Shown here in pieces: positions 45,656 to 64,000 of a DNA stretch of 64,000 nucleotides. The stretch is from Daphnia carinata (lineage: Eukaryota). The stretch lies in NCBI RefSeq assembly GCF_022539665.2, contig NC_081331.1:14198001-14262000 (forward strand), read 5' to 3'. The position numbers and the translations under genes were made by a program. The notes beneath the pieces were generated by a model. The model did not search any database. It was not told the DNA's origin and saw only the letters and a program-made list of their open reading frames with translations. Within the stretch, counting starts at the first letter, position 1. Each line of letters opens with the position of its first letter.

Positions 45656-46499
45656 ATCACCCACAATCTTCGATTAGATCTCACGCCCTCCTTTGTGTAA
45701 TAACGTCGTCTGTTATAGGAACAATGTTCTTGTTTACATCGAGTCCTATTGACTTGGACCGTTTTGATACTGTACACCATCTTCTTTTGTTAGTCCTTTC
45801 GTTCCAGTTGCTTTTGTTTCAAAACACGTTTCTTAATAAGTTGGTGATTCTAGTCCATTTGTCTGATTGACCTCCTGTACATATTTTTTTCTTCGTCGAT
45901 GGACTTTGAATATTGCTGATTCGTGCACAAAAAATGTTTTTCATGTTTGTCGTCCATTTGCTTGAAGTTTTTCCCATCTTATTTTGCCAGGCGATTTCGT
46001 GATTACCTCAATCATGGAACGTGTAGAAGGAAGTGCCGTAATTCCTTCCTTCTAGCAACCTGAGCAAACATATCCAAATCAGTTAAAACTGTACAATCCG
46101 ATATTGTTCATATTTCTTCCCCTACATTTTTGACTGGCCCAATGATCCCCTTTTTGTCGTCATTTTGACATGAAAAAAATTGTGTTATGTATGCAAAATG
46201 TAAAACTTATTGACAAGAACGTCCAAAATAATAAGCTGATTCAAATGTCGGTTTCGTATCTTACTATGTAAATCTCTCAGTGAGTTTCTATAGTAATAAA
46301 ATCGGTTTGCTAGCCATCGACGGGTTTAAGCGAAATCCATTTTCTATGAATAAAAATTCACCTTGATATTATGGCAATCCGTTTCATATGGCAATCCGTT
46401 TTACCCAAAATAAAAATAAAAAATATTGGCCTTTTTTCTGTTTTACTGCTATCGCCATCTACCGATCACGCTACTAGTTAACTCTCTACTACACTGACC

Positions 46500-46592
46500 G
46501 AAAAAAATTTTTAAGCCCGACTAATTAAGGCCGACTAAATAAGCCCGACTTTTCTCGGTCGGGCTTAAATTTATTATTTTGTCGGGCTTATT
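46500..46592. repeat. Miniature TAAGCCCGAC inverted-repeat element
   Basis: Three TAAG(C/G)CCGAC copies are directly followed by two GTCGGGCTTA copies. Confidence 0.7.
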
Positions 46593-46758
46593 TAAAACCT
46601 GGCCAAATAGTATTTCCACTAGATGGCGTGCAGATTCATCAGCCTCTAGCGTGTTGAAATGGAACTATTGTTATTTTTTGTTGTCATGTGATTCTCATTG
46701 TTTACTTTGTTTTTACGTTGACAACGTGTATTTGAGTTTCTCTCGTCTGAACGGTATC

Positions 46759-47687
46759 GTTATTTCTGTTTGTTTTTTTTTGTTGTTTTTACCTCCACCC
46801 CTATTATCGACGTGCAAATATTCTTCTTTTGTTAGTAAACATATCCAGTAGTGGAGTTGCAAGTAACAGATGGGTTCTGTTGTGTACTTTGCACATGTCG
46901 TGGTTTGTTGCATGATTTTATTACTTTGTGAATCAATTGTAACTTATTTACGAGACATTCTTGAAGATGTGCTATTTGCTAATATTCTGCAAGAATGGGA
47001 TCACCCATTTACTTCTGTCTGGTAATAACCATATCTGTTCAACTATCCCCTTAATTCTGATGACTACAAAATTAAGGGGATGGTTTTAAAACATTAAAAC
47101 ATTATTGTTATTTCTGTTTTTTTTTGTTGTTTTTACCTCCACCCCTATTATCGGTGTGCAAATATTGCACTGCTTCATTACCTAAACGAAATGTCAGCCG
47201 TTGCACTTGGGCTTAAAATGAGGTAATATTAACATACTTTTGGAAAACCAGGTCTCATGTTGTATCATTCTGGGTAAAGCCAGTGTTACAAGCAGAACTG
47301 TGCATGATATTTGGTGAAAATCGATGGTTTTTGTGTTTACAACCAAAAGCCAATTTTCAGGATTATTAAGATGATAATTTACTACTTTTACATTTGCAAC
47401 ATGTTAATCTTATTCTTCTTTTGTTAGTAAACATATCCAGTAGTGGAGTTGCAAGTAACAGATGGGTTCTGTTGTGTAATTTGCACATGTCGTGGTTTGT
47501 TGCATGATCTTATTACTTTGTGAATCAATTGTAACTTATTTACGAGACATTCTTGAAGATGTGGTATTTGCTAATATTCTGCAAGAATAGGATCACCCAT
47601 TTACTTCTGTCTGGTAATAACCATATCTGTTCAACTATCCCCTTAATTCTGATGACTACAAAATTAAGGGGATGGTTTTAAAACATT
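46759..47687. repeat. Tandem direct duplication; the first copy lacks an internal ~245 bp segment
   Basis: 46759-46822 matches 47107-47166, and 46819-47095 matches 47411-47687 nearly identically. Confidence 0.9.
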
Positions 47688-47845
47688 TGCTTCGATTATT
47701 ATGTGTGTGGTAGTGATTTGAAGTGGTATACAGGTCGTACCTGAAAGCTGAACTTTAAGAACTTTGAAAGGCCATGTTATGTTCATTTACTATAGTTTAC
47801 ATTTGAAACTACGCAGATCTTTTGTAAGTTGTGAAGGAGAACATA

Positions 47846-48244
47846 GTTCATTTTTTACATTTTCGAAATTATAACTTTCAGTACAACTTCCGGTTTGAAA
47901 ATGCCTAATAACTCACTATCTGTTGGTCTGAATGAAAAAAGAACCACATTTTCGTAATCCTCGTGAAATTTGGGGTCGAATCCATGTGTCAGTAGGAAAT
48001 AGCCGAAAATCGTCAAAAATCGCAAATTTCCCTGAACTATAGTTCAGGAAAAATCACGATTTTGGCCAAATTGGACTTTTCGCCAAAAACAGGTCAAAAT
48101 AGGTCAGACACGCCCTAAATTTCACGAGGATCACGAAAATCATATTCGTTTTGTTGTGGGCCCAGTATTTCTGGAGATATAGGCTACTTCCGGTCACTTC
48201 CGGTAAATTTTTTTTTTAAACTTCGCAAAAACTAAAAAATGAAC
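47846..48244. mobile_element. ~400 bp palindromic MITE-like element nested in element A
   Basis: Ends GTTCATTTTTT / AAAAAATGAAC. Internal inverted repeat ATTTTCGTAATCCTCGTGAAATTT (47948) / AAATTTCACGAGGATCACGAAAAT (to 48140). Central perfect palindrome CCTGAACTATAGTTCAGG at 48030-48047. Confidence 0.65.
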
Positions 48245-48583
48245 ATTAATATGCCAAACACTTTAAGCATTTCGATCATATATGAAATGGTGTAGAAGCT
48301 TCTTTCGTGCTTGTTTTGTTATTTTACTGTTGGTTGATCGCGCGAATTGATATACTTATGACACTACTTCGTTAACAGAGACTACTAGCATTATGTATCA
48401 CGCTAATGGGAAGGTATACCTGGTAAATATAGATCATAGCATGAAGATATACCACATACTATTATTATAACCTTATCACGCACGGCCATCTGATGTATAG
48501 TCAGGTTGAAAAATAAGCCCGACTTCTTGTTTTACGTTACGCTGTATCGTATTAGCACGGTACAGGTAATTACATAATATTAA

Positions 48584-48650
48584 TAGCTCTGAGGTAGAGC
48601 GTCTGACTACGGGAATCGAGAATCAAGAGTTCGAGTCACGTCTGGATCCA
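48584..48650 (+). pseudogene. Degenerate tRNA-like sequence resembling tRNA-Arg(ACG)
   Basis: A-box-like TAGCTCTGAGGTAGAGC, then GCGTCTGACTACGG as in the eukaryotic Arg-ACG anticodon arm, then B-box-like GTTCGAGTC. The stems are broken. Confidence 0.6.
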
Positions 48651-48845
48651 ATGTGCCAGAGGATTGAATTACGGTTGCCACTATAGACAATATTTCTTTG
48701 TACGAAAAATGAATCACTCTATTGTATTTATAGGTGACATTCCGAGACGGAAATATTAAATTGCGTTGGGACGCACAACAATATTATTACAAGTGCAAAT
48801 AGATTTCCTTCAAAAGACATGGAAAAATAGTTATTTAATTTACAA

Positions 48846-48916
48846 GACTCATGGCTCTATGGTTGAGCATCGGCGTCGCACGCCAGAGATCAAGGGTTCA
48901 GTCCCCTAGAGAGTCA
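48846..48916 (+). pseudogene. tRNA-like cloverleaf, Ala(CGC)-like
   Basis: Acceptor-like GACTC/GAGTC, D-arm GCTC-TATGGTT-GAGC, arm GGC-GTCGCAC-GCC, T-arm AGGG-TTCAGTC-CCCT. Confidence 0.6.
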
Positions 48917-49275
48917 AAATGAAAATAAATATGTGTAACTCAAAATGTCAAATCTGATATACAATGCATGTATACTATTCAATATCAGTAATTCACATAA
49001 AGTTGTAGAATCTCCATGAAGTGAGATTAAAGTGCATCGTTCCATAATCTGTCTAACAACGAAATATAGTCCCATGATTGGGAATAGCAAAAACTGAAAA
49101 TGTAATGTATACGTCAATAAATTGACATAGCGACATCTATAAGGAAATGTATGTGTAATAAATAAGGAAATGTGAACAGTGCAGTGCAACAGCACGACAG
49201 TAAAAAAGACAATATCTGTAAATATTTTTTTGTAAAGAATTTGTATTGACAGTATTCGGCACAATTTGAAGACTT

Positions 49276-49641
49276 GCAACTTTGAAAGGCAAAATAGCCG
49301 ATTTCAAAGTTGCTGTCAACCAAGGTAGGGGGAGACACTACCTCAGTTTGACTCACCGGGGAGATTACCCGGTGCGTGGCTAAGAGAAGCCGGAAGAAGA
49401 GCGAAGGTTGCGGACAAGCTTTTACGTGAGCGATTAACTGTTAATTCGGATTTTTGGGTAGCCCCATAGCCCTCCAATGATATCATCGGACCATGAGGAC
49501 CCCCACGTCCCCTTTCCAGACAGCGCACTCACAACCGTTACTGCTGATCACAGTAGGGGCATGACCCCCTACGGGCTTATTAAAAATCAAAGGGAAACGG
49601 GGCCACAGAAAAGAAGGGAGCCCAGATATACACTTCAATTT
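49276..49641 (-). ncRNA. Conserved multi-hairpin structured element, copy 1 (diverged); function unknown
   Basis: Alignable to 53207-53587 and 54490-54870 with stems preserved. Strand inferred from G-U-compatible substitutions. Confidence 0.5.
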
Positions 49642-49879
49642 ATATAAATTTTAATACTTTGTTTTCCGGCCGCAGCAACGACTGAAGGTAATGGGCAGGA
49701 AGCATTTTTCAAAAATTCCTTCGGGCTTCCAACCGTTATCATTATGAAATTTGGTTCGACTAGATACCTCTTTTGATTCAGTATGATTCTTAACCTATTT
49801 AAAGAAAACGAAACATGAATCAATTTTTAAACGTTTGCCCATCAATATATATTCAATAAGGATCGGTGCAATCCTTCTT

Positions 49880-51380
49880 TACCTCTTGTTTTGGTGAACT
49901 ACTGGTATTAACTGTATTCAGCTAATGGTTTGACAGACATAGTGCTTGCTTGGATGGTAAGTTGACGGGCAGCGAAGAAACTAATCATTAAGCGACTACC
50001 TATTTTCTAATACCTATGCAAAAAACACAATAAATGGCATTTTAATTAGTTATAATCATGGGTTTCCAGGCACAAAAAAAGACAGACTTACTGGGTGAGA
50101 CGGTTCAAAACGTTCCAACTTCTTTCAGGACCCCTGCATCAGAATGACAGACTGAGGATGAGTTCGGAAGTCGCGAATTGAGATAGCCAATTTCGGTAAT
50201 ATACTTGATCTCTTTCATACTAGGCATGTAATCTAAATTTGCTGTACAATGTACAACAAAAAACAAAGCAGTAAAATAATTCTGTATAAAAAATTACTAA
50301 ATTGCATTTTGTTACACCTATTTGGCTTTGTAAAGTGATACTAACTTACAACATAGTCCTGTGAAGTTGCTCACCGGGCATGACAAGCAATACATCTTCG
50401 ATATAAGCTGAAGCAGTCTGATTCAAGAATGCTTAGGTTGTCCAAAAACACTGCATACTGACTGATGGAACAGCAGAAAATCAGGATGTAGATTAATTGA
50501 TTTTCCAGAAATAAGTACCTTTGACGTTTGAAATTCTGACCAACTGTTTTTGCTGTTCACATTTTTCAAAATGTTCAGCACATACTTAAGGCCACCATAG
50601 CACAGAATTTTTTCCAGTTTTGCAAACATACCATCACAGCATCTATGAGGAACAGGAGAGGTTAAAGTTTTCTTTCTTTAAAAATCTATTTATTTCATAA
50701 CATACCACGATAAGCTCTTCTTTTGTAATGGGCAGCCCTCTCTAAGTACTTGCATAAGTAATGCTTCAATACTTAGAACAGCTGAAACAAGCAGTTGTGA
50801 TAAAAAAAAGTATCAGCACCACTGGCAAGAATATAAGCATGAAGACTTGTTATGGACAATATCTACAATTGGTACAAATGACAGATGGGGTGAAACTACA
50901 ATACGACGAACTAAACTGAACCTTCCTCATTGATGTGTCAATCTATAGAAGGATTTAAATCTTTCTTAATGAGACATGCAGGATACTGTTTAAAATTTTA
51001 GTAAAGATGGTACCAAATGCTGAGTTACTAGAAATTTTGCCCGGAAAATCTCCAACTGACACGTGAAACATAAATCAGCTGTTCTGCATTTGCAAATCCA
51101 GTGTTCAAGTAACCATATTATCCAATCCATGTCTGCCATGTCTTGGTGTCACATAGAAAATCGTAAAAATTGTTTTAAAAAAAGAATATATTTTTTTCGA
51201 TAGTGAGTTTTATTAATATCTAAATAACGAAAGTCATATGTATACTCACAGATGTATCACTTTTCAATCCAAAGAAGTCTTATTTTTTTCTTAAGCCAAA
51301 CTTTTTTGTGAAGAAATGAAGAGTTTCTACTGGCATTACTCATTTTCACTGAAGGAAATCCTTGCAAACACACCATATTA
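49880..51380 (-). pseudogene. Decayed multi-exon gene remnant carried in element A; product not recognised
   Basis: A regular series of minus-strand donors (plus-strand ACTCAC ~51244, GTAC ~51010 and ~50516, CATAC ~50701, ACTTAC ~50086) and pyrimidine-rich acceptors. The exon-like blocks contain stops. Confidence 0.35.
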
Positions 51381-51751
51381 GGAGCAGCGCGACGAAGCAG
51401 AAATATTAGGTCAATGTATATAGAGAATTAACTAAAAATCTGACCGTTAGATGGCGATAGCAGAAATACAGAAAAAATGCTTATATTTTTTTTGGGGGTT
51501 GGGGGGGGGGGTAAAACGGATTGCCATATAATAACGTATATATCTGGCAATCCGTTTTACACAAAAAAAAAAAAAATATCGCCAAAAAAAAAAACAAAAA
51601 TCGCACTTTTTTCTTTTTTTCCGACACGTAGCCATCTACCGCTCAGACTCGTTATGACTAGCGTAGGCAATTTCAGTCCATTGGATTCCATTCGCAGTTA
51701 GTTCAGTAGCGTGGATGGAGAATAACGCGTGGCTGGAGGAACAATTGAAAA

Positions 51752-52355
51752 ATGGATTAGATAATAAAACAAAAAAATGGTAAGTATAAACATTATTATA
51801 TTGGTTTTCAATTATTAATTATTGTTTATTAGATCAAATTATGAAGCTGCAGGCCCAGTTATTGGAACAACACAAAATATTAGATAACAACAAAGCTAAG
51901 GATCGTAGGCCTAATACGTAATGATTCTATTTATTTGCTTTTATTCATTCGTGTTTTGTAGCTCAAATTTTGAGTCTACAAGCTCAGCTAGGGGAAAAGA
52001 ACAAATTGGAACGAAACACTTTCCAAACAGTGAAGGAGGTTTTTCAAAACTCATCCCTAACTGAACGTGAGGATGAGTTGGCATTAGGTGAACACAGCCA
52101 GGTACCTAAACTTTTCAAATAAGAATTCAAAATAAGTATAGAATTTTAAAAAACAATTATTTATTGTTTAGTTATTCAGTCCACTACCTGACAGCGTGTT
52201 AAAGTTAAATTCTGTTAGTGCTGCACTAAAAGAATTGTTAGTAATAAGCCCATGCAGTGAAGGAACTGAACAATTGTGGGACCATATTTGGGCCGAAAAT
52301 GGGTGTGGTACAGAAACCCAGAAATGGCACAAGTTCAACATGAAACATGGATTAG
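51752..52355 (+). pseudogene. Disabled copy of the spliced coiled-coil cargo gene (left arm)
   Basis: Same exon/intron layout as 55722-56326, but codon 3 is TAG (51758-51760) where the right arm has AAG. Confidence 0.55.
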
Positions 52356-53206
52356 GTACTTTTCGGTTTTTTGTCTATCGAAAAAGTATTTTTAATGCTA
52401 TTATTTTGCATTCACAGAACTTTAGCAGGGGATTAAGTCAAGTCTGGAAGTGTTACAGGATGGAAGAGTCAGCCTACAGTTGAAAAAAACACTGAGAGTG
52501 CATTACCATTAAGCTATGAGGTAAAGTAATAGGGTATGCACATTGTCTAATGAGAAGTACCATCTTGTGTGAATGAATCCTGTATAACAGCAATCCTTTA
52601 TAGTTCTGTCACAGCTAGAAGCCTCAAATAATTCTGCTTCCCTTGCTAAAGAACAACTTGTCCTTTACGCTCAGTGTTGGTGAAGCTGGGTACTTAAATG
52701 GCCCTAAAGATGTTTCACTTCACTGGCATTGCAGCGATGAACATCATACATAGACTCTTTAGGTATGAAAGGAATTTTCTTGAAAATTTTTTGAATTTAT
52801 GATGAAGCTTTTCTCCTCCTTTTTGCCAACCATGTCTAATCTACAAAAAAAAAATTATCCAATAGGAAAGGATTTTCAGCATACTGGGAACACAACTATC
52901 AACAATGCAACATTCTAGGGGTTTTATTTTATCATTCAAGAGCCTTATACAATGATTTTCATCTGCAATTTGTATGGCCTTTCCCAAGCTTCTGCTAGAA
53001 GTTGAATCTATGAGTCATGTAAGTCATGAGCAACAATTGAGATGCTTAATGGTGTTTTTCTTTTCTCAGTGTAGGTTAATAGTAACATTGGATCTGAAAA
53101 GATTCTTGGTTGGGGCATGACACTGAATAAATTGTAATGATTGAATGGATGACATGACATTTCTATACTTCATTCGGATTCCCGAGACGGTATTTTATAT
53201 TTAAAA

Positions 53207-53587
53207 AATTGAAGTGCATATCTGGGCTCCCTTCCTTTCCGTAGCCCCGTTTCCCCTTGACTCGTAATAAGCCCGTAGGGGGTCATGCCCCTACTGTACG
53301 GTATATATAAAAACAACATATACCGAGGTTTGGAGGGCTCTGGCCGGAAAGGGGACGTGGATGTCCGCTTAGTCCGATGATGTGTTCACGGAGGGCTCTG
53401 TGGCTACCCACAAATCCGAACTAAAGGTTAATCGCTCCTGTAAAAATGTTCCAAATCTTCAGCTCTTCTTCCGGCTTCTCTTAGCCAATCACCGGGTAAT
53501 CTCCCTGGTGGGTCAACAAGGCAGTGTCTCCCCCTGCCTGGGTTGACGGCAACTTTTGAAAGGGCTATTGTGCCTTTTTAAAGTTGC
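53207..53587 (+). ncRNA. Conserved multi-hairpin structured element, copy 2; function unknown
   Basis: Hairpins GTAGGGG/CCCCTAC, CGGTATAT/ATATACCG, GGAC/GTCC, TGTGG/CCACA, CACCGGG/CCTGGTG, GTCAAC-AGGCAG/CTGCCT-GTTGAC and GCAACTTT-GAAAGGGC/GCCTTTTT-AAAGTTGC. Confidence 0.5.
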
Positions 53588-53883
53588 AAAAATAATTGTA
53601 ACGTGTAGAGAATTGTCAATAAATTTTTTTTTCATAAAATATTTTTTGCAAAATTTGTCTCTTTCATTGTCTGTGTTCGCTTTGTTCACACATTACAATT
53701 ACCAAATTTTTTTTTATTTAGCTTGCTCAATTCATCTTTATTGTTTTTGCCACCGTTGTATCGTTTATCTGTAAGTATTCAATTATTATTATTACACTTT
53801 TTGAATTCTTGAACTTAGACAAGAAACAACGAGTAATACCTGGATATTTTCTGAAGTAATTTTGTAATTATATATTGTTTTAC

Positions 53884-53948
53884 TGGCATGGGAATCGATC
53901 CCCAGACATTTAGCGTGCAACGCCGATGCTCTAACATTGAGCCACGAG
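53884..53948 (-). pseudogene. tRNA-like sequence, Ala(TGC)-like
   Basis: The minus strand reads GTGGCTCAATGTTAGAGCATCGGCGTTGCACGCTAAATGTCTGGGGATCGATTCCCATGCCA, homologous to 48846-48916. Confidence 0.55.
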
Positions 53949-54047
53949 ATATATTTAAAATTTTATTATCGCATATCATATGTTATCCTCTAGGATGTTT
54001 ATGCAGTCTTTCACAACTATATGTTTATCTTTCTATTGCTTTCGTAA

Positions 54048-54110
54048 GGTCCATAGCTCTGTGGTAGAGCATTCAGCTGCGATAACTGTTACCCTGGGTT
54101 CAAACCTTAC
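54048..54110 (+). pseudogene. Degenerate tRNA-like sequence
   Basis: TAGCTCTGTGGTAGAGC (A-box/D-arm, one mismatch from 48584-48600) and GGTTCAAACC (B-box consensus GGTTCRANCC). Confidence 0.55.
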
Positions 54111-54232
54111 TAAATGTATAATGATCTACATCTAAATGGAGGAAAGAATAATGCACTAATGCATTTCAATTTTATTCAAAGTGTAAATGCAAGTCCGCAA
54201 GTGACTAGAAAAAAGCCAACTTGACATCATAT

Positions 54233-54300
54233 GATTCATGGCTCATTGGTAGAGCATAGGCGCGGTATGCCGAACATCCAGCGTTCGATCCCTGGATAAT
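54233..54300 (+). pseudogene. Degenerate tRNA-like sequence
   Basis: GATTCATGGCTCATTGGTAGAGCATAGGCGCGGTATGCCGAACATCCAGCGTTCGATCCCTGG has an A-box and a B-box. It is homologous to 48846 and 53884. Confidence 0.55.
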
Positions 54301-54489
54301 AATTGAATGCTTACAGCCTACACTGGCAAAAAACAATATAGGTGAATTGAGCAAGCTAAATAAAAAAAAAGGCGATATATGTAATGTGTGAACACAGCGA
54401 ACAAAGACAATGAAAGAGACAAATTTTGCAAAAAATATTTTATGAAAAAAAAATTTATTGACAATGCTCTACACGTTACAATTATTTTT

Positions 54490-54870
54490 GCAACTTTAAA
54501 AAGGCACAATAGCCCTTTCAAAAGTTGCCGTCAACCCAGGCAGGGGGAGACACTGCCTTGTTGACCCACCGGGGAGATTACCCGGTGATTGGCTAAGAGA
54601 AGCCGGAAGAAGAGCTGAAGATTTGGAACATTTTTACAGGAGCGATTAACCTTTAGTTCGGATTTGTGGGTAGCCACAGAGCCCTCCGTGAACACATCAT
54701 CGGACTAAGCGGACATCCACGTCCCCTTTCCGGACAGAGCCCTCCAAACCTCGGTATATGTTGTTTTTATATATACCGTACAGTAGGGGCATGACCCCCT
54801 ACGGGCTTATTACGAGTCAAGGGGAAACGGGGCTACGGAAAGGAAGGGAGCCCAGATATGCACTTCAATT
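54490..54870 (-). ncRNA. Conserved multi-hairpin structured element, copy 3 (mirror of copy 2)
   Basis: Reverse complement of 53207-53587 with very few substitutions. Confidence 0.5.
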
Positions 54871-55721
54871 TTTTAAATATAAAATACCGTCTCGGGAATC
54901 CGAATGAAGTATAGAAATGTCATGTCATCCATTCAATCATTACAATTTATTCAGTGTCATGCCCCAACCAAGAATCTTTTCAGATCCAATGTTACTATTA
55001 ACCTACACTGAGAAAAGAAAAACACCATTAAGCATCTCAATTGTTGCTCATGTGACTTACATGACTTATAGATTCAACTTCTGGCAGAAGCTTGGGAAAG
55101 GCCATACAAATTGCAGATGAAAATCATTGTATAAGGCTCTTGAATGATAAAATAGCACCCCTAGAATGTTGCATTGTTGATAGTTGTGTTCCCAGTATGC
55201 TGAAAATCCTTTCCTATTAGATAAATTTTTTTTTAGATTAGACATGGTTGGCAAAAAGCAGGAGAAAAGCTTCATCATAAATTCAAAAAATTTTCAAGAA
55301 AATTCCTTTCATACCTAAAGAGTCTATGTATGATGTTCATCGCTGCAATGCCAGTGAAGTGAAACATCTTTAGGGCCATTTAAGTACCCAGCTTCACCAA
55401 CACTGAGCGTAAAGGACAAGTTGTTCTTTAGCAAGGGAAGCAGAATTATTTGAGGCTTCTTGCTGTGACAGAACTATAAAGGATTGCTGTTATACAGGAT
55501 TCATTCACACAATATGGTTCTTCTCATTAGACAATGTGCATACTTTATTACTTAACCTCATACCCTTATGGTAATGCACTCTCAGTGTTTTTTTCAACTG
55601 TAGGCTGACTCTTCCATCCTGTAACACTTCCAGACTTGACTTGATCCCCTGCTAAAATTCTGTGAATGCAAAATAATAGCATTAAAAATACTTTTTCGAT
55701 AGACAAAAAACCGAAAAGTAC

Positions 55722-56326
55722 CTAATCCACGTTTTATGTTGAACTCATGCCATATCTCGGTTTCCGTATCACACCCATTTTCGGCCCAAATATGGTCCCA
55801 CAATTGTTCAATTCCTTCGCTGCATGGACTTATTATTAATGATTCTTTTAGTGCAGCACTAACAGAATTTAAATTTAACACACTGTCAGGTGGTAGACTG
55901 AATAACTAAACAATAAATAGTTGTTTGTTAAAATTCTATACTTATTTTGAATTCTTATTTGAAAAGTTTAGGTACCTGACTGTGTTCGCCTAATGCCAAC
56001 TCACCCTCATGTTCAGTTAGGGAAGAGTTTTGAAAAACCTCCTTCACTGTTTGGAAACTGTTTCGTTCCAATTTGTTCTTTTCCCCTAGCTGAGCTTGTA
56101 GACTCAAAATTTGAGCTACAAAACACAAATGAATAAAAGCAAATAAATAGAATCATTATGTATTAGGCCTTACCATCCTTAGCTTTGCTGTTATCTAATA
56201 TTTTGTGTTGTTCCAATAATTGGGCCTGCAGCTTCATAATTTGATCTAATAAACAATAATTAATAAGTGAAAACCAATATAATAATGTTTATACTTACCA
56301 TCCTTTTGTTGTATTATCTTATCCAT
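55722..56326 (-). CDS. Putative spliced cargo gene encoding an uncharacterised protein with an N-terminal coiled coil (exons 56326-56299, 56245-56174, 56115-55976, 55905-55722; 3' end unresolved)
   Basis: Four GT-AG exons join into 141 open codons: MDKIIQQKDDQIMKLQAQLLEQHKILDNSKAKDAQILSLQAQLGEKNKLERNSF...EQLWDHIWAENGCDTETEIWHEFNIKRGL. Confidence 0.5.
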
Positions 56327-56617
56327 TTTTCAATTGTTCCTCCAGCACCGCGTTATTCTCTCCATCCACGCTACTGAACTAGCTGCGAATGGCATCCAAT
56401 GGACTGAAATTGCCAACGCCAGTAATAACGAGTCTGAGCGGTAGATGGCTACGTGTCGGAAAAAAAGAAAAAAGTGTGATTTTTTTTTGTTTTGGGGAAT
56501 TTTTTTTTTTTTTTTTTTTTTGTAAAACGGATTGCCATAATCATCTACGTTATTATGAACAGCCTCTATTCATACTCGCCATCTAGTTTCCCGATGGAAA
56601 ACTAAATTGATTGGTGG

Positions 56618-57882
56618 AAAAGTCGGGCTTATTTTGTCGGGCTTATTTTTTGACATAAATGTTATGACCTTATGCTAGCGCGCCAGTACGCTACAACACT
56701 AGCGCGATGCTGCATATTCGGCGTATTTCCAAAATGGTTGCCTGAATGAATAAAATAACAATGTTATCGGTTTCAGCATTCAATTTTGAGTATATCCTGT
56801 GATTTTCAACCAATCCCGATGAGTGCTGGTTTGTGCAGGAAAAAATTTTAAGCCCGACTAAATAAGCCCGACTACATATATAAGCCCGACTACATATATA
56901 AGCCCGACTTTCTTATTTTTTGCACGAATATTCGGTATATTTAAAAAAACGGCTAACCTGACAAGAAAACGAATGGCTTTTTCTGAATCAGCGTTAAATT
57001 CTGACTATAACGTATGATTTTCATCGAATTCCAAAAGATTTTATTTTTGGCCGATTTTATCAAAAGTGAGAAGGCTAAAGCCTTCTCATTTTTTCATTTT
57101 TGGCTAAATTTTAAATTTCGCTTAAAATACATGATTTCGATTCAGAATTGAATGTTTATCACGATACTAAAATTTATTTTTCAATTGGCCTCATAGTTTT
57201 TAAATTAAACGTCAAAAACACTAGGTCGGGCTTATTTTGTCGGGCTTAAAATTTGTAACTGCAAAAACTGACGCTCACTGGAATTGGTTGAAAATCACAG
57301 GATATAGTCAAAATTTAATGCTGATTACGGAAAAATTGCTATTTTTACCATTAAGTTACTCGTTTTTGAAATACACCGAATATTTGACACAATGCTAGCG
57401 CGCCAGTATGCTACAGCGCTAGAGCGATGCAGCATAGATATATTCGGTGTATTTCCGAAATGGTTGACTTGATGAATAGAATAACATTTTACAGGAATCA
57501 GCATTCAATATGGTATATATCCTGTGGTATTCAACAATTCCGATGAGTGTCAGTTTTTGCAGAAAAAATTTTTAAGCTCGACTAAATAACCCCGACTTTT
57601 CTTATTTTTTCGTTTTTTACGTTTAATTAAAAAATCATAAGGCCGATTGAAAAATAAATTTTATTTTCATGATTACCATTCAATTCTGCATCGAAATCAT
57701 GTGTTTTAAGCGAAATTTAAAATTTAGCCAAAAATGAAAAAGTGAGAAGGCTATAGCCTATTAAGTCAACCATTTTGGAAATACCCCGAATATATCTATG
57801 CTGTATCGCACTAGCGCTGTAACGTACTGGCGCGCTAGCATATAGGATCAAATATTCGGTCTATTTCTAAAACGATTAACTT
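56618..57882. mobile_element. Complex foldback cluster of the TAAGCCCGAC family
   Basis: 56672-56860 is repeated directly at 57392-57600 and inverted at ~57240-57385 and ~57760-57841. 57065-57220 is inverted at ~57610-57760. TAAGCCCGAC arrays occur at 56618-56647, 56849-56910 and 57225-57250. Confidence 0.75.
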
Positions 57883-58288
57883 TCACGAACCTTTTTCGTT
57901 GTCATGACAACCAGAGAGCCATCTAGTGTTTGATAAGCATAGGAAAGAGGAAGCAGACTACGTTCAATAAGTTTGACAGCTTACCGGGGTTATTAGGGTG
58001 TGTGAGCTTTTTTGTTGGGAAGGAACCGTAAATAGAATGGTAAAATTAGACTTCTCCCCTTCGTGAACATTCGAGCGTCTTCGTGGTTTCTAGAAAGAAA
58101 AAATTTGTTTTTAAACTTTCAGTGAATGCGCTCCACGTTTAGTATTATCTAGCGCGCTATTCAAGAAACTTTGGAATTGCTACAGGTGAAGTACCAATTA
58201 CGGTGAGCTGCTGGATTTGAACAAAATCTATTTTATCTCTGGATCACATTTACTTTTTTACTTTTTATTTTTAAAATCTTTTAGGAAA

Positions 58289-61200
58289 ATGACTCATGAT
58301 AGTCCAACTGCACAGCTCAAAGAGGCTGGTAACGCAGCCTTCGCAGAAGGAGATTGGGACAAGGCCTTGACATGCTACACACAAGCTCTAAATTTGATTG
58401 AGTTGGACACTCCAGAGAAAGCTATTCTTTACAAAAATAAAGCAGCAGTGTACTTAAAAGTATCCGACTATGAAGCTGCCATCAAGGACTGTACTGCCTC
58501 TTTGGAAATCTCTCCCAATGATCCAAAAGCCCTTTTTCGTAGGTGCCAAGCATATGAGGCCTTGGAAAAATTTGAAGAGGCTTACAAAGATGCCAGACAA
58601 GTTCACAATTTAGATAAGAACAACAAAGCCATTGCACCCATTCTTCAAAGACTGCATGATATAGTCCAAGATAGGGTATGTTTTAAACAAAACTTGTTTA
58701 CATTTGTTTAGATAGAATCGCCCAGCAAATTATTGAATGTCGTCTGTCTTCCAGATGGCTCGGTTTGCTCAAACTACCACAAAAGTTACCCAGATGATGG
58801 AAATTGCGTTCGACTTGTCCACGACGGTCGAAAAGCGGGAAACGGCGACTTCCAATCTTCTAGTGCTTGCCAAGGAAAGTGCCGGTACGTTTTCCTGTTC
58901 AATTACACTATATTAAATTACCAATTACTATGTTTTGCTGATTTTTTTGTCGAATCTTTTAAATGAATTAATTATTTCTTAAAAATAAGGAGCTGATTTG
59001 TTGGTCAAGGAAGGGATATTTGAAAAGATTAACTCCCTGTTGAAAAAAGAAACCACTCCAAGTATTGTAGTGTCTTGTATTCGCATCGTCAGTGCATTGT
59101 GCAAAGGAAATTTGCCTCGGGTGAGTTGTTTTTGTTTACCACTTTTTCTATTTAATATGTATCTGAATGATTATACATCCAGGCTAAAATGGTTCTTCAA
59201 TTGCTTGGAGTTCCTTGGCTTCTTGATCAATTAAACTCAAATAATGATGACCAAGTTAGTGCAGCTCAGTATTGTTGTCAAACAGTGATCAATACCATTT
59301 CAGGTCTAGATTTGAAAGATGATAAACAACCCGATAAGGCGCTGTGTGAAGGTTTTTACCATTGAACTCTTTCTTTATAATTTTCGTTTTAAAATAACCA
59401 CAAAATTTATGTACATGAACAAAATGCAGCAAACCGCAAGGAAATCGACACCATTTTAACGTGCCTGATTTACTGTTCTACTAGCCGCACTATCACTGGA
59501 AAATGCCGAGATGCTGTTCTTGAGTTGATGATGAGGAACTGCGAATACCGTGCCTTAGACTGGGCGGAGCGTCTGGTCGATATCAATGGTATGTCTGAAG
59601 CTAAGTCGAACTAAATAGGAACTCGAGCAACACTTTTCAAACTGAATCTTTGTGAATTGTCGTTTTTAGGTTTACAGCGAATGATGCAAATAGCCAGTGA
59701 ACTGGAAGAGATGAAGTACGAATCATCAATGGAAATCACAGAAAATACGCGAACCATCATCTCTTGTGCCTTGGGCAAAGTCTATGACAACATGTACTAT
59801 GATTTGATCAAAGAGCGTTTCAGTGCAAAGATTGAAGATTTTATCCAGTAAGTTTGTCATTCTTTTTCATTGCCGTTTTTTTAAATGGAGGAATTATCTT
59901 GTGATCGTATTTTTAATTAGCGAACAACTACAAACTCCTGGCATGGAAAGCAAAGTTCGGGTGGTGGTTGCAGTCACAACATTGCTATTAGGACCGCTTG
60001 ATGTGGGCAGTTCTATTATAGGCAAGGAAGGTGTTTTAGAAATGATTCTCGTCATGGCCAACAGTGGCGACTTTCTTATGCAGGTAAGAAAAAAAGCTAT
60101 TTGTTTGACTTTTGATGAAAAAGAGTTCAATGCCTCTGATGACGCTCCTATTAAACTCTTTTTTAGCGAGTCTCGTGCGAGGCCCTGATCGCTGCCGCGT
60201 CGAAAAAGGATAAAGCGTCAGCTATTCTAGCCCAAGGTGTCACGATTCTCAAGAAACTCTACCAAATTGGCAATGACAATATCAAGGTAGGTTCGCATAC
60301 GAATAGAAATTAATAGGGGAAAAAAAAAAAGCAAAGTTAAATGAGTGACGAGTTGATTTTAAAATTACAGGTAAGAGCTTTGGTTGGCTTGTGCAAATTG
60401 GGAAGTTGCGGAGGCACTGACTCCTCTTGGAAGCCTTTCACTGACGGTTCCACAATGAAGTTGGCTGAAGCTTGTCGCAGGTGAGTCACGCTTTGTTTCA
60501 ATCTTATGAATAATTCAATTCACTTCAGTAAATTTGTTTTTTTTTTTAGGTTTTTGATCAACCCAGCGAAGGACAAAGACATGCGCAAGTGGGCTATTGA
60601 AGGCCTTTCCTATTTAACATTAGATGCTGAGGTTAAGGAGAAACTCATTGAGGACAAGGAAGCTCTTCAGTCACTTATTGAAGTGGCAAAGGTAGATAGT
60701 GAGAACATAATGATAGCATGGAATTTCTTAACGGCAAAACTTTGTCCATTTCTAGTCTGGAGATTTTTCAGTTATTTACGGAGTCGTGTCTACTTTAGTG
60801 AATCTTTGCAATGCGTACGACAAACAAGAAATCATCCCCGAAATGCTCGAATTAGCGAAATTTGCCAAACGGCATGTTCCGGAACAGCACGAATTGGACG
60901 ATCCCGATTTCGTTCATAAACGCGTTGATGTACGTATAACAAAAAGTTGGGATTGGTGAAACAATTGTTTTTTACTGTAAGATTTTTTCGATACTTTCAG
61001 ATTTTAGGGAAGGCAGGCGTTACGGTTGGTCTAGTTTCCTTATGCAAAACAGAGAGCGAAAATTGCAAAGAATTGATCGCAAGGTAAAACTTTGCCTTTT
61101 TCGTTTTTTTTTTTTTTTTTAACTTTAATCTAATGACGTTACCATTCTAGGGTATTCAATGCTATTTGCGAACACCAAAATTTGCGCGGCATTGTCGTCC

Positions 61201-62203
61201 AACAAGGTGGAGCGAAGGCTCTAATCCCTTTGGCACTCGAAGGTAATTGTATACAAATTTCGAAAATCGGATAAAAACTGATGTGCGATATGGTTTTCAA
61301 TGAAAATAATTTCATCAATAGGGACACCTAAAGGCAAATATCAAGCGAGTCAGGCATTAGCACGGATCGGTATAACCATCAACCCGGAAGTGGCATTCCC
61401 TGGACAGAGAATGTGTGAATTGATCCGACCACTCCTCGGACTTTTAGATCTCGAATGCAACGCTTTAGAAAATTTCGAAGCTTTGATGGCCCTTTGTAAT
61501 TTGGCTGGCTTCGAAGCGCCGAGAAAAAGGATCATCAAAGAGAACGGTGTTAGCAAAATTGAAAATTACATGTACGAAAATCACGACATGTTGCAAAAGG
61601 CGGCAGTGCAAGCGATGAGCAATTTGCTCTTTAGTGAGGAAGTAGTGAAATTGTTCGAAGGCAAAAACGACCGCACGAAATTCTTGGTCTTACTTTCCAC
61701 ATCGGAAGACATTGAAATGTCTAAAGCCGCAGCGGGAGCCATAGCCATTCTGACGTCCGTCAGCAAACGAGCGTCACGCAAGATTTTCGAGGTTTGTCTA
61801 CCCGCTCCCTTTTAAAGTTTCCCTGTTAACTTAAAAAAAAAAAAATATGTTTTGTGCTAGGCTTTGGAGTGGAAAGAGATTTTATGCTTTTTACTAAGCA
61901 ACAAAGACAAAGACGTGCAATACCGGGGGGCTGTCATTGTGAAAAACATTGCCAGCCATTCGAAAGAACTAGCAGAGAAATTGCTCGTACCTGAAGTGCT
62001 TCTGGTATTAGACGTTCTCTCCAAATTCGGTAGGGGAAGATTTCATTAGATGACTGTGCCGCGTACTTAATCTTTTCTTCACATTGGTTACTGTAGAAAC
62101 ACCTGAGATGGCAAAAGTTACCGAATGCGTCAAGGCAACTCTACAGCTGGCCGAGCAATGGAAACTTGTCGAGAAAGAAGACGAGTCAGAAGATGAGCTC
62201 TAA
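58289..62203 (+). CDS. unc-45: Myosin chaperone UNC-45 (TPR + central ARM + UCS domain), multi-exon
   Basis: Three TPRs ([25 protein letters not shown]...[13 protein letters not shown]). UCS motifs [41 protein letters not shown] and [15 protein letters not shown]. Stop at 62201-62203. Confidence 0.96.
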
Positions 62204-62353
62204 AATGAAATGAAATTAAGCCGATTCAAAAATATTTGTGCCTTTGCAAATCCACTCGTTAAAGTTAAATACACTTTATACGTCATTTGTCAAGATTAAA
62301 AAAAAAAATGAAATTTATTCATACGTATAAGATTATTGGTGATATGGCTGTGT

Positions 62354-63758
<1,405 letters not shown>

Positions 63759-64000
63759 TGTGATATTGTTGTCTGCGGATTTTCTTGTTTTTCGTTTGGA
63801 TCAGACTTGTCAACGAAAAAGGAAGAGTTGAAATCTTAAAGACGTCTCCGCCGTCGTCAGCTTTTCAAAAGGGATTACCGGTGCACTGTTGTCTGATTCC
63901 TCTAATTGGCTTCTTGATGACTGATTGAACAAAATGCATCCAAAGCCAAACGAAGAAGGGAATTATATATCCATCTTAGAGATTTACATATCACATGCAA

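Follow-up and report, generated by a model that had tools for sequence, protein, structure and literature searches.

A candidate structured RNA module behind transposon-like cargo genes in Daphnia carinata

The stretch of Daphnia carinata DNA analyzed here (the window, 64,000 nucleotides of contig NC_081331.1) contains a multi-hairpin element in several copies, and the question raised by this locus is whether the element works as a folded RNA and, if so, on which strand and in what kind of transcript. The explanation that we favor, and to which we give about an even chance from the sequence evidence, is that transcripts of IS3EU/GingerRoot-like transposons carry it near their 3' ends as a structured RNA module, so far uncatalogued, which likely protects them.

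Three copies of the element were located in the window. Copy 2 occupies 53206..53589 on the + strand, which is the sense strand of its cargo gene; these limits were set by fold and alignment, and they agree with coverage and with loose contig ends in other organisms. Copy 3 lies at 54488..54872 (- strand) and has 378 of 380 letters in common with copy 2 (99.5% identity), and copy 1 (49274..49644, - strand) is clearly diverged, as originally described, with 80-81% identity to copies 2 and 3. A sequence profile search of the window found no fourth copy. The count of three copies was therefore correct, but copies 2 and 3 are so alike because they sit in the two arms (51528-53789 and 54296-56556) of a 2275-bp palindrome of 95% identity. 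They are thus not independent, and the window contains two independent copies. The description of a GC-rich island in AT-rich DNA also stood, with 50.5% GC in the element compared to 33.8% and 31.3% in the flanks.

A pattern scan of metagenome contigs yielded one locus, L001, which served as a third independent copy. It keeps a core of 220-240 nt at an overall identity of 61-62%, and its element lies between two convergent intron-containing genes, with flanks that differ from those in the window. Behind the same core, at positions 745-920 of L001, another array of long hairpins takes the place of hairpins H1-H4 of the window copies; core and array therefore appear to be separable modules. Four element patterns gave 0 matches in viral contigs, and genome contigs also gave 0.

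Part of the stretch was present in 20 of the 21 sequencing runs listed (11 studies), with no RNA runs among those listed. Contigs of four runs from four studies (X1, X2, X4, and X5) were aligned to 52900-54000, giving 251, 2, 179, and 160 records, respectively. In X4 and X5, which come from organisms B and C, summed contig depth was 4,000-50,000 over 53196-53565, compared to 44-64 on long contigs, and was zero over 52900-53047 and 53677-53861. Coverage in X2 was confined to 53214-53591. The depth pattern in X4 and X5, which is not a copy number, fits a multicopy repeat in which the element is conserved while its flanks differ.

Differing flanks between organisms and in L001 could also mean that the element acts as DNA, either as a single-stranded fold in a transposition or replication intermediate or as a small nested mobile element of the Helentron, MITE, or solo-LTR kind. 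As single-stranded DNA the element does fold nearly as well as RNA (z = -3.84), G-T pairs can form in DNA too, and copy 2 reads TG...CA between AAAAT flanks. However, these flanks are not duplicated at copy 1, homology extends past both ends of the element, the position behind genes is constant in all four full copies, and in X1 the 3' region of the cargo gene was covered about as deeply as the element. We consider either form of this reading quite unlikely. A solo LTR, which would be TG..CA with a 4-6 bp TSD, was rejected on the same flanks, since AAAAT is found at copy 2 only.

The preferred reading is a folded RNA. In the model for copy 2 (+ strand), an invariant 5' motif (53206-53223) is followed by core hairpin P1 (53224-53247), whose loop (14 nt, read by hand) pairs with a distal strand to form the long-range helix P2 (53232-41 with 53345-54). 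A junction of P3, P4, and P5 in the core, the long hairpin P6 (53357-53411), and hairpins H1-H4 (53473-53587) complete the model. A rival pairing for P2, 53252-58 with 53349-55, is equally compatible, and some core pairs are lost: 2 of the 5 P3 pairs do not form in copy 1, nor do 2 of the 7 P4 pairs in L001. Pairing is kept in 113 of the 125 cells (90.4%) that the three independent cores provide, compared to 48-62% with slid partners. This count understates P6, since L001 is shifted there by one column; with each sequence in its own register, P6 pairs at 11/11 positions in L001, 11/11 in copy 1, and 9/11 in copy 2. A pyrimidine run near P2, TTTCCCCT, is a parallel match of AAAGGGGA, the P2 purine strand (53250-53257 and 53348-53355), and a triple helix at P2 is possible, if speculative, from this match.

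Most of the stems named in the original prediction were as described. CACCGGG/CCCGGTG and GTAGGGG/CCCCTAC are kept, the named G-U pairs, CACCGGG/CCTGGTG among them, are present, and at 53522-53536 both sides of the stem have truly changed, with AGGCAG/CTGCCT replaced by AGGTAG/CTACCT. The GGAC/GTCC stem is present as named, but it is lost in the more distant L001 and competes with a longer hairpin.

Fold energies compared to dinucleotide shuffles gave z scores of -3.72 (sense) and -4.81 (antisense) for copy 2 and -3.81 and -2.30 for copy 1; the values for L001 were -2.62 and -1.89. Both strands fold better than shuffles, and energy alone therefore does not choose the strand. As for base changes, one that gives G-U on one strand gives A-C on the other. 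In hairpins able to form either way, wobble-type changes favored the gene-sense strand in 7 of 7 cases (p = 0.008), and in 10 of 10 with P2 added; some of these positions were taken from the 40 of 87 variants across runs that were listed. Among those 40, 17 fall inside the element; 7 of these lie in stems of the model, and none of the 7 disrupts its pair. At unpaired sites, transitions among the variants listed were 3 C>T versus 3 G>A, and the comparison of paired with unpaired sites reached only p = 0.07, which leaves room for strand-biased mutation.

Double changes were found at 4 of 42 core pairs in the three independent sequences; stems with double changes are P4, P6, and H3. With these three sequences, from which the structure model itself was derived, covariation was not above shuffles: values as high were reached in 55 of 500 cases, in 69 of 500 for double changes, and in 84 of 500 for the score. 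The proposal of a folded RNA on the cargo-sense strand is thus supported in part, by the 7/7 wobble asymmetry, by conservation across organisms, and by a poly(A)-type signal behind all four copies, but not by significant covariation.

The lack of significant covariation would also suit hairpins that are neutral by-products, with the similarity of the copies due to gene conversion between repeats and to their recent spread. A comparison of the palindrome arms shows differences at 2 of 380 sites in the element, compared to 56 of 1490 in the gene part (p = 4e-4) and 15 of 163 in the spacer behind it. Because the low divergence already begins near 52670-53050, ahead of the element, gene conversion may contribute. 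Against neutrality, divergence jumps just behind the element, L001 keeps the core despite an unrelated array and flanks, and the double changes fall in P4, P6, and H3. We regard this as the least probable of the readings weighed here.

Placement of the element relative to genes is consistent with a module in a transcript. In all four full copies, the element shares its strand with an intron-containing gene and turns its TGAAGTG end toward the 3' end of that gene, and a poly(A)-type hexamer follows 28-45 nt past the last hairpin, each before a T/GT-rich stretch. Copy 2 has AATAAA, a putative poly(A) signal, at 53618..53623 (+), 30 nt after its last hairpin, and copy 3 has AATAAA at 54454..54459 (-), also 30 nt past. 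At the homologous place behind copy 1 (49242..49247, -; 28 nt) the hexamer is AATACA, which we take to be a variant poly(A) signal; in L001, AATAAA lies approximately 45 nt past the last hairpin. Copies 2 and 3 have a further AATAAA 84 nt upstream of the element, so that some transcripts may end before it; this hexamer is common in AT-rich DNA. The cargo ORF stops approximately 790 nt ahead of the element, with further introns between. A stop codon well ahead of further introns makes an mRNA a target of nonsense-mediated decay, and the cargo mRNA would therefore be such a target.

Cleavage at the upstream AATAAA of copies 2 and 3 would put the element in the downstream fragment, and this bears on another reading: the element could be a separate noncoding RNA gene carried as cargo, whose product acts in trans as a decoy to counter silencing by RNAi/piRNA, for which adenovirus VA RNA and flavivirus sfRNA are models. 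Release could come from its own TATA-like promoter or from an exonuclease that stalls at the 5' knot. In all copies and in the loose ends of X1, X4, and X5, P1 is indeed preceded by an AT-rich TATA-like stretch and by the invariant, mostly unpaired AAATTGAAGTGYATATCT. However, apart from the AT-rich stretch, the last 60 bases before the element show no conserved promoter element, T4/T5 runs within copy 1 and L001 argue against Pol III, and the orientation is always that of the upstream gene. We judge a separate RNA to be unlikely, while giving it serious weight.

Five tRNA-like units with A and B boxes accompany the element in the spacers, which also fits a separate RNA gene. The unit at 48846..48916 (+) scored 19.8 bits with the Rfam tRNA model, below the gathering threshold of 29. 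The others, located by alignment, are at 48584..48640 (+), 53885..53945 (-), 54053..54110 (+), and 54239..54296 (+), and one contig each from X4 and X5 joins the element to the unit at 53885 (53574 to 53889). ARAGORN reported 0 tRNAs by default; with relaxed settings, 2 of 11 calls fell on tRNA-like units and the others were noise. A tRNA-derived SINE, in which tRNA head, body, and tail form one Pol III unit, was rejected, as the units are 200-360 nt off, behind several runs of T4 or more, and on the strand opposite to the favored fold.

The original prediction that the element does not fit the hammerhead, HDV, RNase MRP, 7SK, or SRP consensus was upheld. Rfam gave 0 matches in the window at the gathering threshold, and only chance-level matches at E up to 10 with each copy alone; the RNase MRP, 7SK, and SRP covariance models had no match at E up to 10. 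A search of the literature, with Repbase Reports, most subscription papers, and the D. magna TE FASTA of PMC8594854 outside its range, found no description of such an element, and 12 of the 32 other supplementary files of PMC8594854 gave 0 matches. The repeat may be present unannotated in Repbase Reports or in that FASTA library. None of the readings as KDZ, Harbinger, Crypton, Helentron, Penelope, SINE, solo LTR, or MRP had support.

The pseudoknot-like P1/P2 arrangement and the invariant unpaired stretches would suit a new class of self-cleaving ribozyme. Such a ribozyme would cut read-through RNA and prevent long dsRNA from convergent genes or palindrome arms, and convergent genes in L001 and the palindrome in the window provide a setting for it. 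The known classes were examined from their motifs. The hammerhead core is CUGANGA plus GAAA with three stems; CTGA.GA is missing from the sense strand in 4/4 copies and occurs antisense in copies 2 and 3 only. HDV-like ribozymes form a nested double pseudoknot with L3 and P1.1; here there is no L3-like motif at a shared place, and the P1 loop is too short. Twister has AAGCCC with UGCC..GGU upstream, and pistol has a loop pairing with CCCUAA; AAGCCC is kept in 4/4 copies, but UGCC..GGU lies downstream of it and is missing in L001, and neither class gave an Rfam match. The best ribozyme score was CPEB3 at 12.2 bits (E = 2.6, gathering threshold 35), on the antisense strand. Since the poly(A) signal behind the element would also make cleavage unnecessary, we find a ribozyme very unlikely.

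What carries the element was examined from the surrounding repeats. It is internal to two transposon-like segments (46370-51528 and 51543-56539), and homology runs beyond both of its ends; the possibility that it is simply a TE terminus was tested and did not hold. The segments are bounded by four inverted ends. End A (46370..46502, +) begins with TATGGCAATCCG twice, at 46370 and 46387, and its partner, end B (51406..51528, -), matches it at 75% over 134 bp. End C (51543..51700, +) has the TCTGG variant, and its partner is end D (56375..56539, -). TATGGCAATCCG is exact at four sites (46370, 46387, 51528, and 56539), with the variant at 51543. All four ends start with TATGG (one TCTGG) and then CAATCCGTTTTA, giving TATGG/TCTGG-CAATCCG starts, and have 120-165 bp of sequence in common.

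IS3EU elements are described with TAYGG..CCRTA ends (PMC12730594) and 6-bp TSDs (PMC12730594, PMC10045372), and GingerRoot, of the same superfamily, with TIRs of 100-150 bp that enclose intron-bearing gene fragments and with the transposase often lost (PMC6839031). TAYGG..CCRTA termini are present at the segment ends, and the inverted ends match GingerRoot-type length (~100-150 bp; A/B 134 bp, with all four ends aligning). The flanks of ends A-D have no 6-mer in common in any pairing, as a 6-bp TSD would give, and Pfam found no catalytic DDE gene or domain in the 64-kb window. For these two reasons the segments are called IS3EU/GingerRoot-like rather than members, and we describe them as putatively non-autonomous, rearranged derivatives. 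The share of IS3EU is given as 0.05% in D. pulex and 0.00% in D. magna in Table 1 of PMC8594854. An end-motif scan of viral contigs gave 2 matches, taken as chance.

Several other arrangements were observed among these repeats. At 51511-51560, ends B and C stand head-to-head, 14 bp apart, and the sequence between them is similar to the flank outside end D, which suggests that the palindrome arose when one end was duplicated, together with its flank, in inverted orientation. Another repeat family occurs at 485-860, 46500-46620, 48512-48525, and 56570-57930 and is marked by TAAGCCCGAC subterminal repeats and by nested inverted arms; one copy of it may interrupt the left arm of the first segment. 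This family carries CCACTAGATGGCG, presumably a CTCF-like motif. The first segment also contains a 277-bp direct duplication (99%; 46819-47095 and 47411-47687) and a small fold-back region at 47913-48180.

A large conserved fold within a DNA transposon, with a conserved core and a swappable 3' array, might be a scaffold RNA for a transposase or partner nuclease that guides or assembles transposition in the manner of omega-RNA or bridge RNA. However, the element is not at a transposon end, neither a neighboring Fanzor/TnpB gene nor a variable guide-like window was seen, and no literature was found that combines Fanzor and IS3EU. We view a scaffold as highly improbable.

Each copy lies behind a cargo gene. 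The gene before copy 2 (51752..52425, +) has five exons, with limits set against proteins P0001 and P0003, and a stop at codon 3 in this palindrome arm; palindrome alignment places a second copy of it before copy 3 (55652..56326, -). The gene before copy 1 (approximately 50100..51350, -) is decayed, with GT-AG introns read from the sequence, and a sequence search found no relative of it. The family of the gene in the palindrome arms has approximately 95 annotated D. carinata members in 14 clusters with no Pfam domain, and the exon adjoining the element is 82-93% identical to 14 D. carinata protein clusters (14 of 21 candidates). These orphan genes are probably transposon cargo. Host genes are found beyond the segments at 58270-62200 (+) and 62340-63780 (-); by their translations they resemble UNC-45 (TPR plus armadillo) and CWC24/RNF113A, respectively.

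The cargo protein is a mosaic, with residues 28-77 matching D. magna proteins P0016 and P0019 and residues 77-126 matching P0017 and others. A search for its relatives gave 8 new matches, one of which, a bacterial TPR protein, was taken as chance. Exon 4 of the window's cargo gene is 46% identical to P0017 over 50 aa. Residues 58-164 of P0017 resemble clusters with HTH and rva_4 integrase domains (features 0.89-0.93; TM 0.69-0.74), and its structural match clusters are 90-99% PF24764. By these model comparisons, the continuation of P0017 beyond the cargo-like part appears to resemble the N-terminus of rva_4-type transposases; rva_4 is, we presume, the IS3EU transposase family. Pfam names nothing in P0017 and nothing useful for the cargo proteins, and relatives of P0017 were found neither in viral or genome contigs nor, in longer form, by word search. 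A structure-atlas lead to GCR1_C/Crypton for the cargo protein (score 0.77) was dropped, and an AlphaFold model of it (pLDDT 47) was set aside.

A protective 3' module could work as follows. Promoters in the inverted ends would drive inward transcription, which would cross the cargo gene and then the element and run to the poly(A)-type signal. The RNA would fold a 5' knot, in which the pyrimidine loop of hairpin P1 pairs 110 nt off to form P2, followed by the junction, the long irregular hairpin, and an exchangeable hairpin array with pyrimidine-rich loops. This fold is predicted to bind host proteins and shield the polyadenylated transcript, a short ORF with a 3' region of approximately 800 nt that contains introns, from exonucleases or nonsense-mediated decay. 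Transposons retaining the element would spread better, which would explain why it outlasts its neighboring genes.

Cut-and-paste DNA transposons are thought to need little besides a transposase and their ends. That a non-coding fold is conserved across several organisms, and better than the surrounding genes, points to an RNA-level step in the expression of IS3EU/GingerRoot-like elements or in their escape from silencing. More tentatively, and with a real but minor chance of being right, this may be an animal DNA-transposon lineage that uses its own large pseudoknotted RNA and tRNA-like genes as an active tool, either as an exonuclease-resistant anti-silencing RNA or as a transposase-binding scaffold. 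To our knowledge, RNA in such a role has so far been described in viruses and in bacterial insertion sequences that are guided by RNA. The favored reading would also account for some of the orphan gene families and unclassified repeats in Daphnia, as transposon cargo. The many natural variants in sequenced Daphnia genomes make the structure solvable by covariation and quickly testable.

Compared with known systems, the segments resemble IS3EU and GingerRoot in their TAYGG-type ends, their long inverted ends, and their intron-bearing fragments devoid of a catalytic domain, and differ in the missing 6-bp TSD and in ends rearranged head-to-head and as a palindrome. A structured RNA is predicted here, whereas none is reported for IS3EU or GingerRoot in the available parts of PMC10045372, PMC12730594, and PMC6839031; the GingerRoot paper (PMC6839031) uses none of the words "tRNA", "hairpin", and "secondary structure" in its available text. 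RNase MRP RNA is approached by an antisense GUCCC/GGGGC pairing in 3/3 copies and an AGUCA-like motif; in contrast, a CR-I GNAA occurs only in L001, wobbles favor the other strand, and the element is multicopy with no Rfam match. Like the hammerhead pLTRs of Penelope-like elements and retrozymes, this is a structured repeat that belongs to a multicopy mobile element and lies 3' of genes with introns; unlike them, it has no sense hammerhead core, no reverse transcriptase, and ends of DNA-transposon type. The Rous sarcoma virus (RSV) stability element, the MusD transport element, and flavivirus xrRNA/sfRNA act in cis on RNA. They belong to elements with RNA genomes, whereas the carrier here is a putative cut-and-paste DNA transposon and the element has no Rfam match, but the likeness lies in the layout, in which a pseudoknot and hairpins, a few hundred bases in all, follow an ORF.
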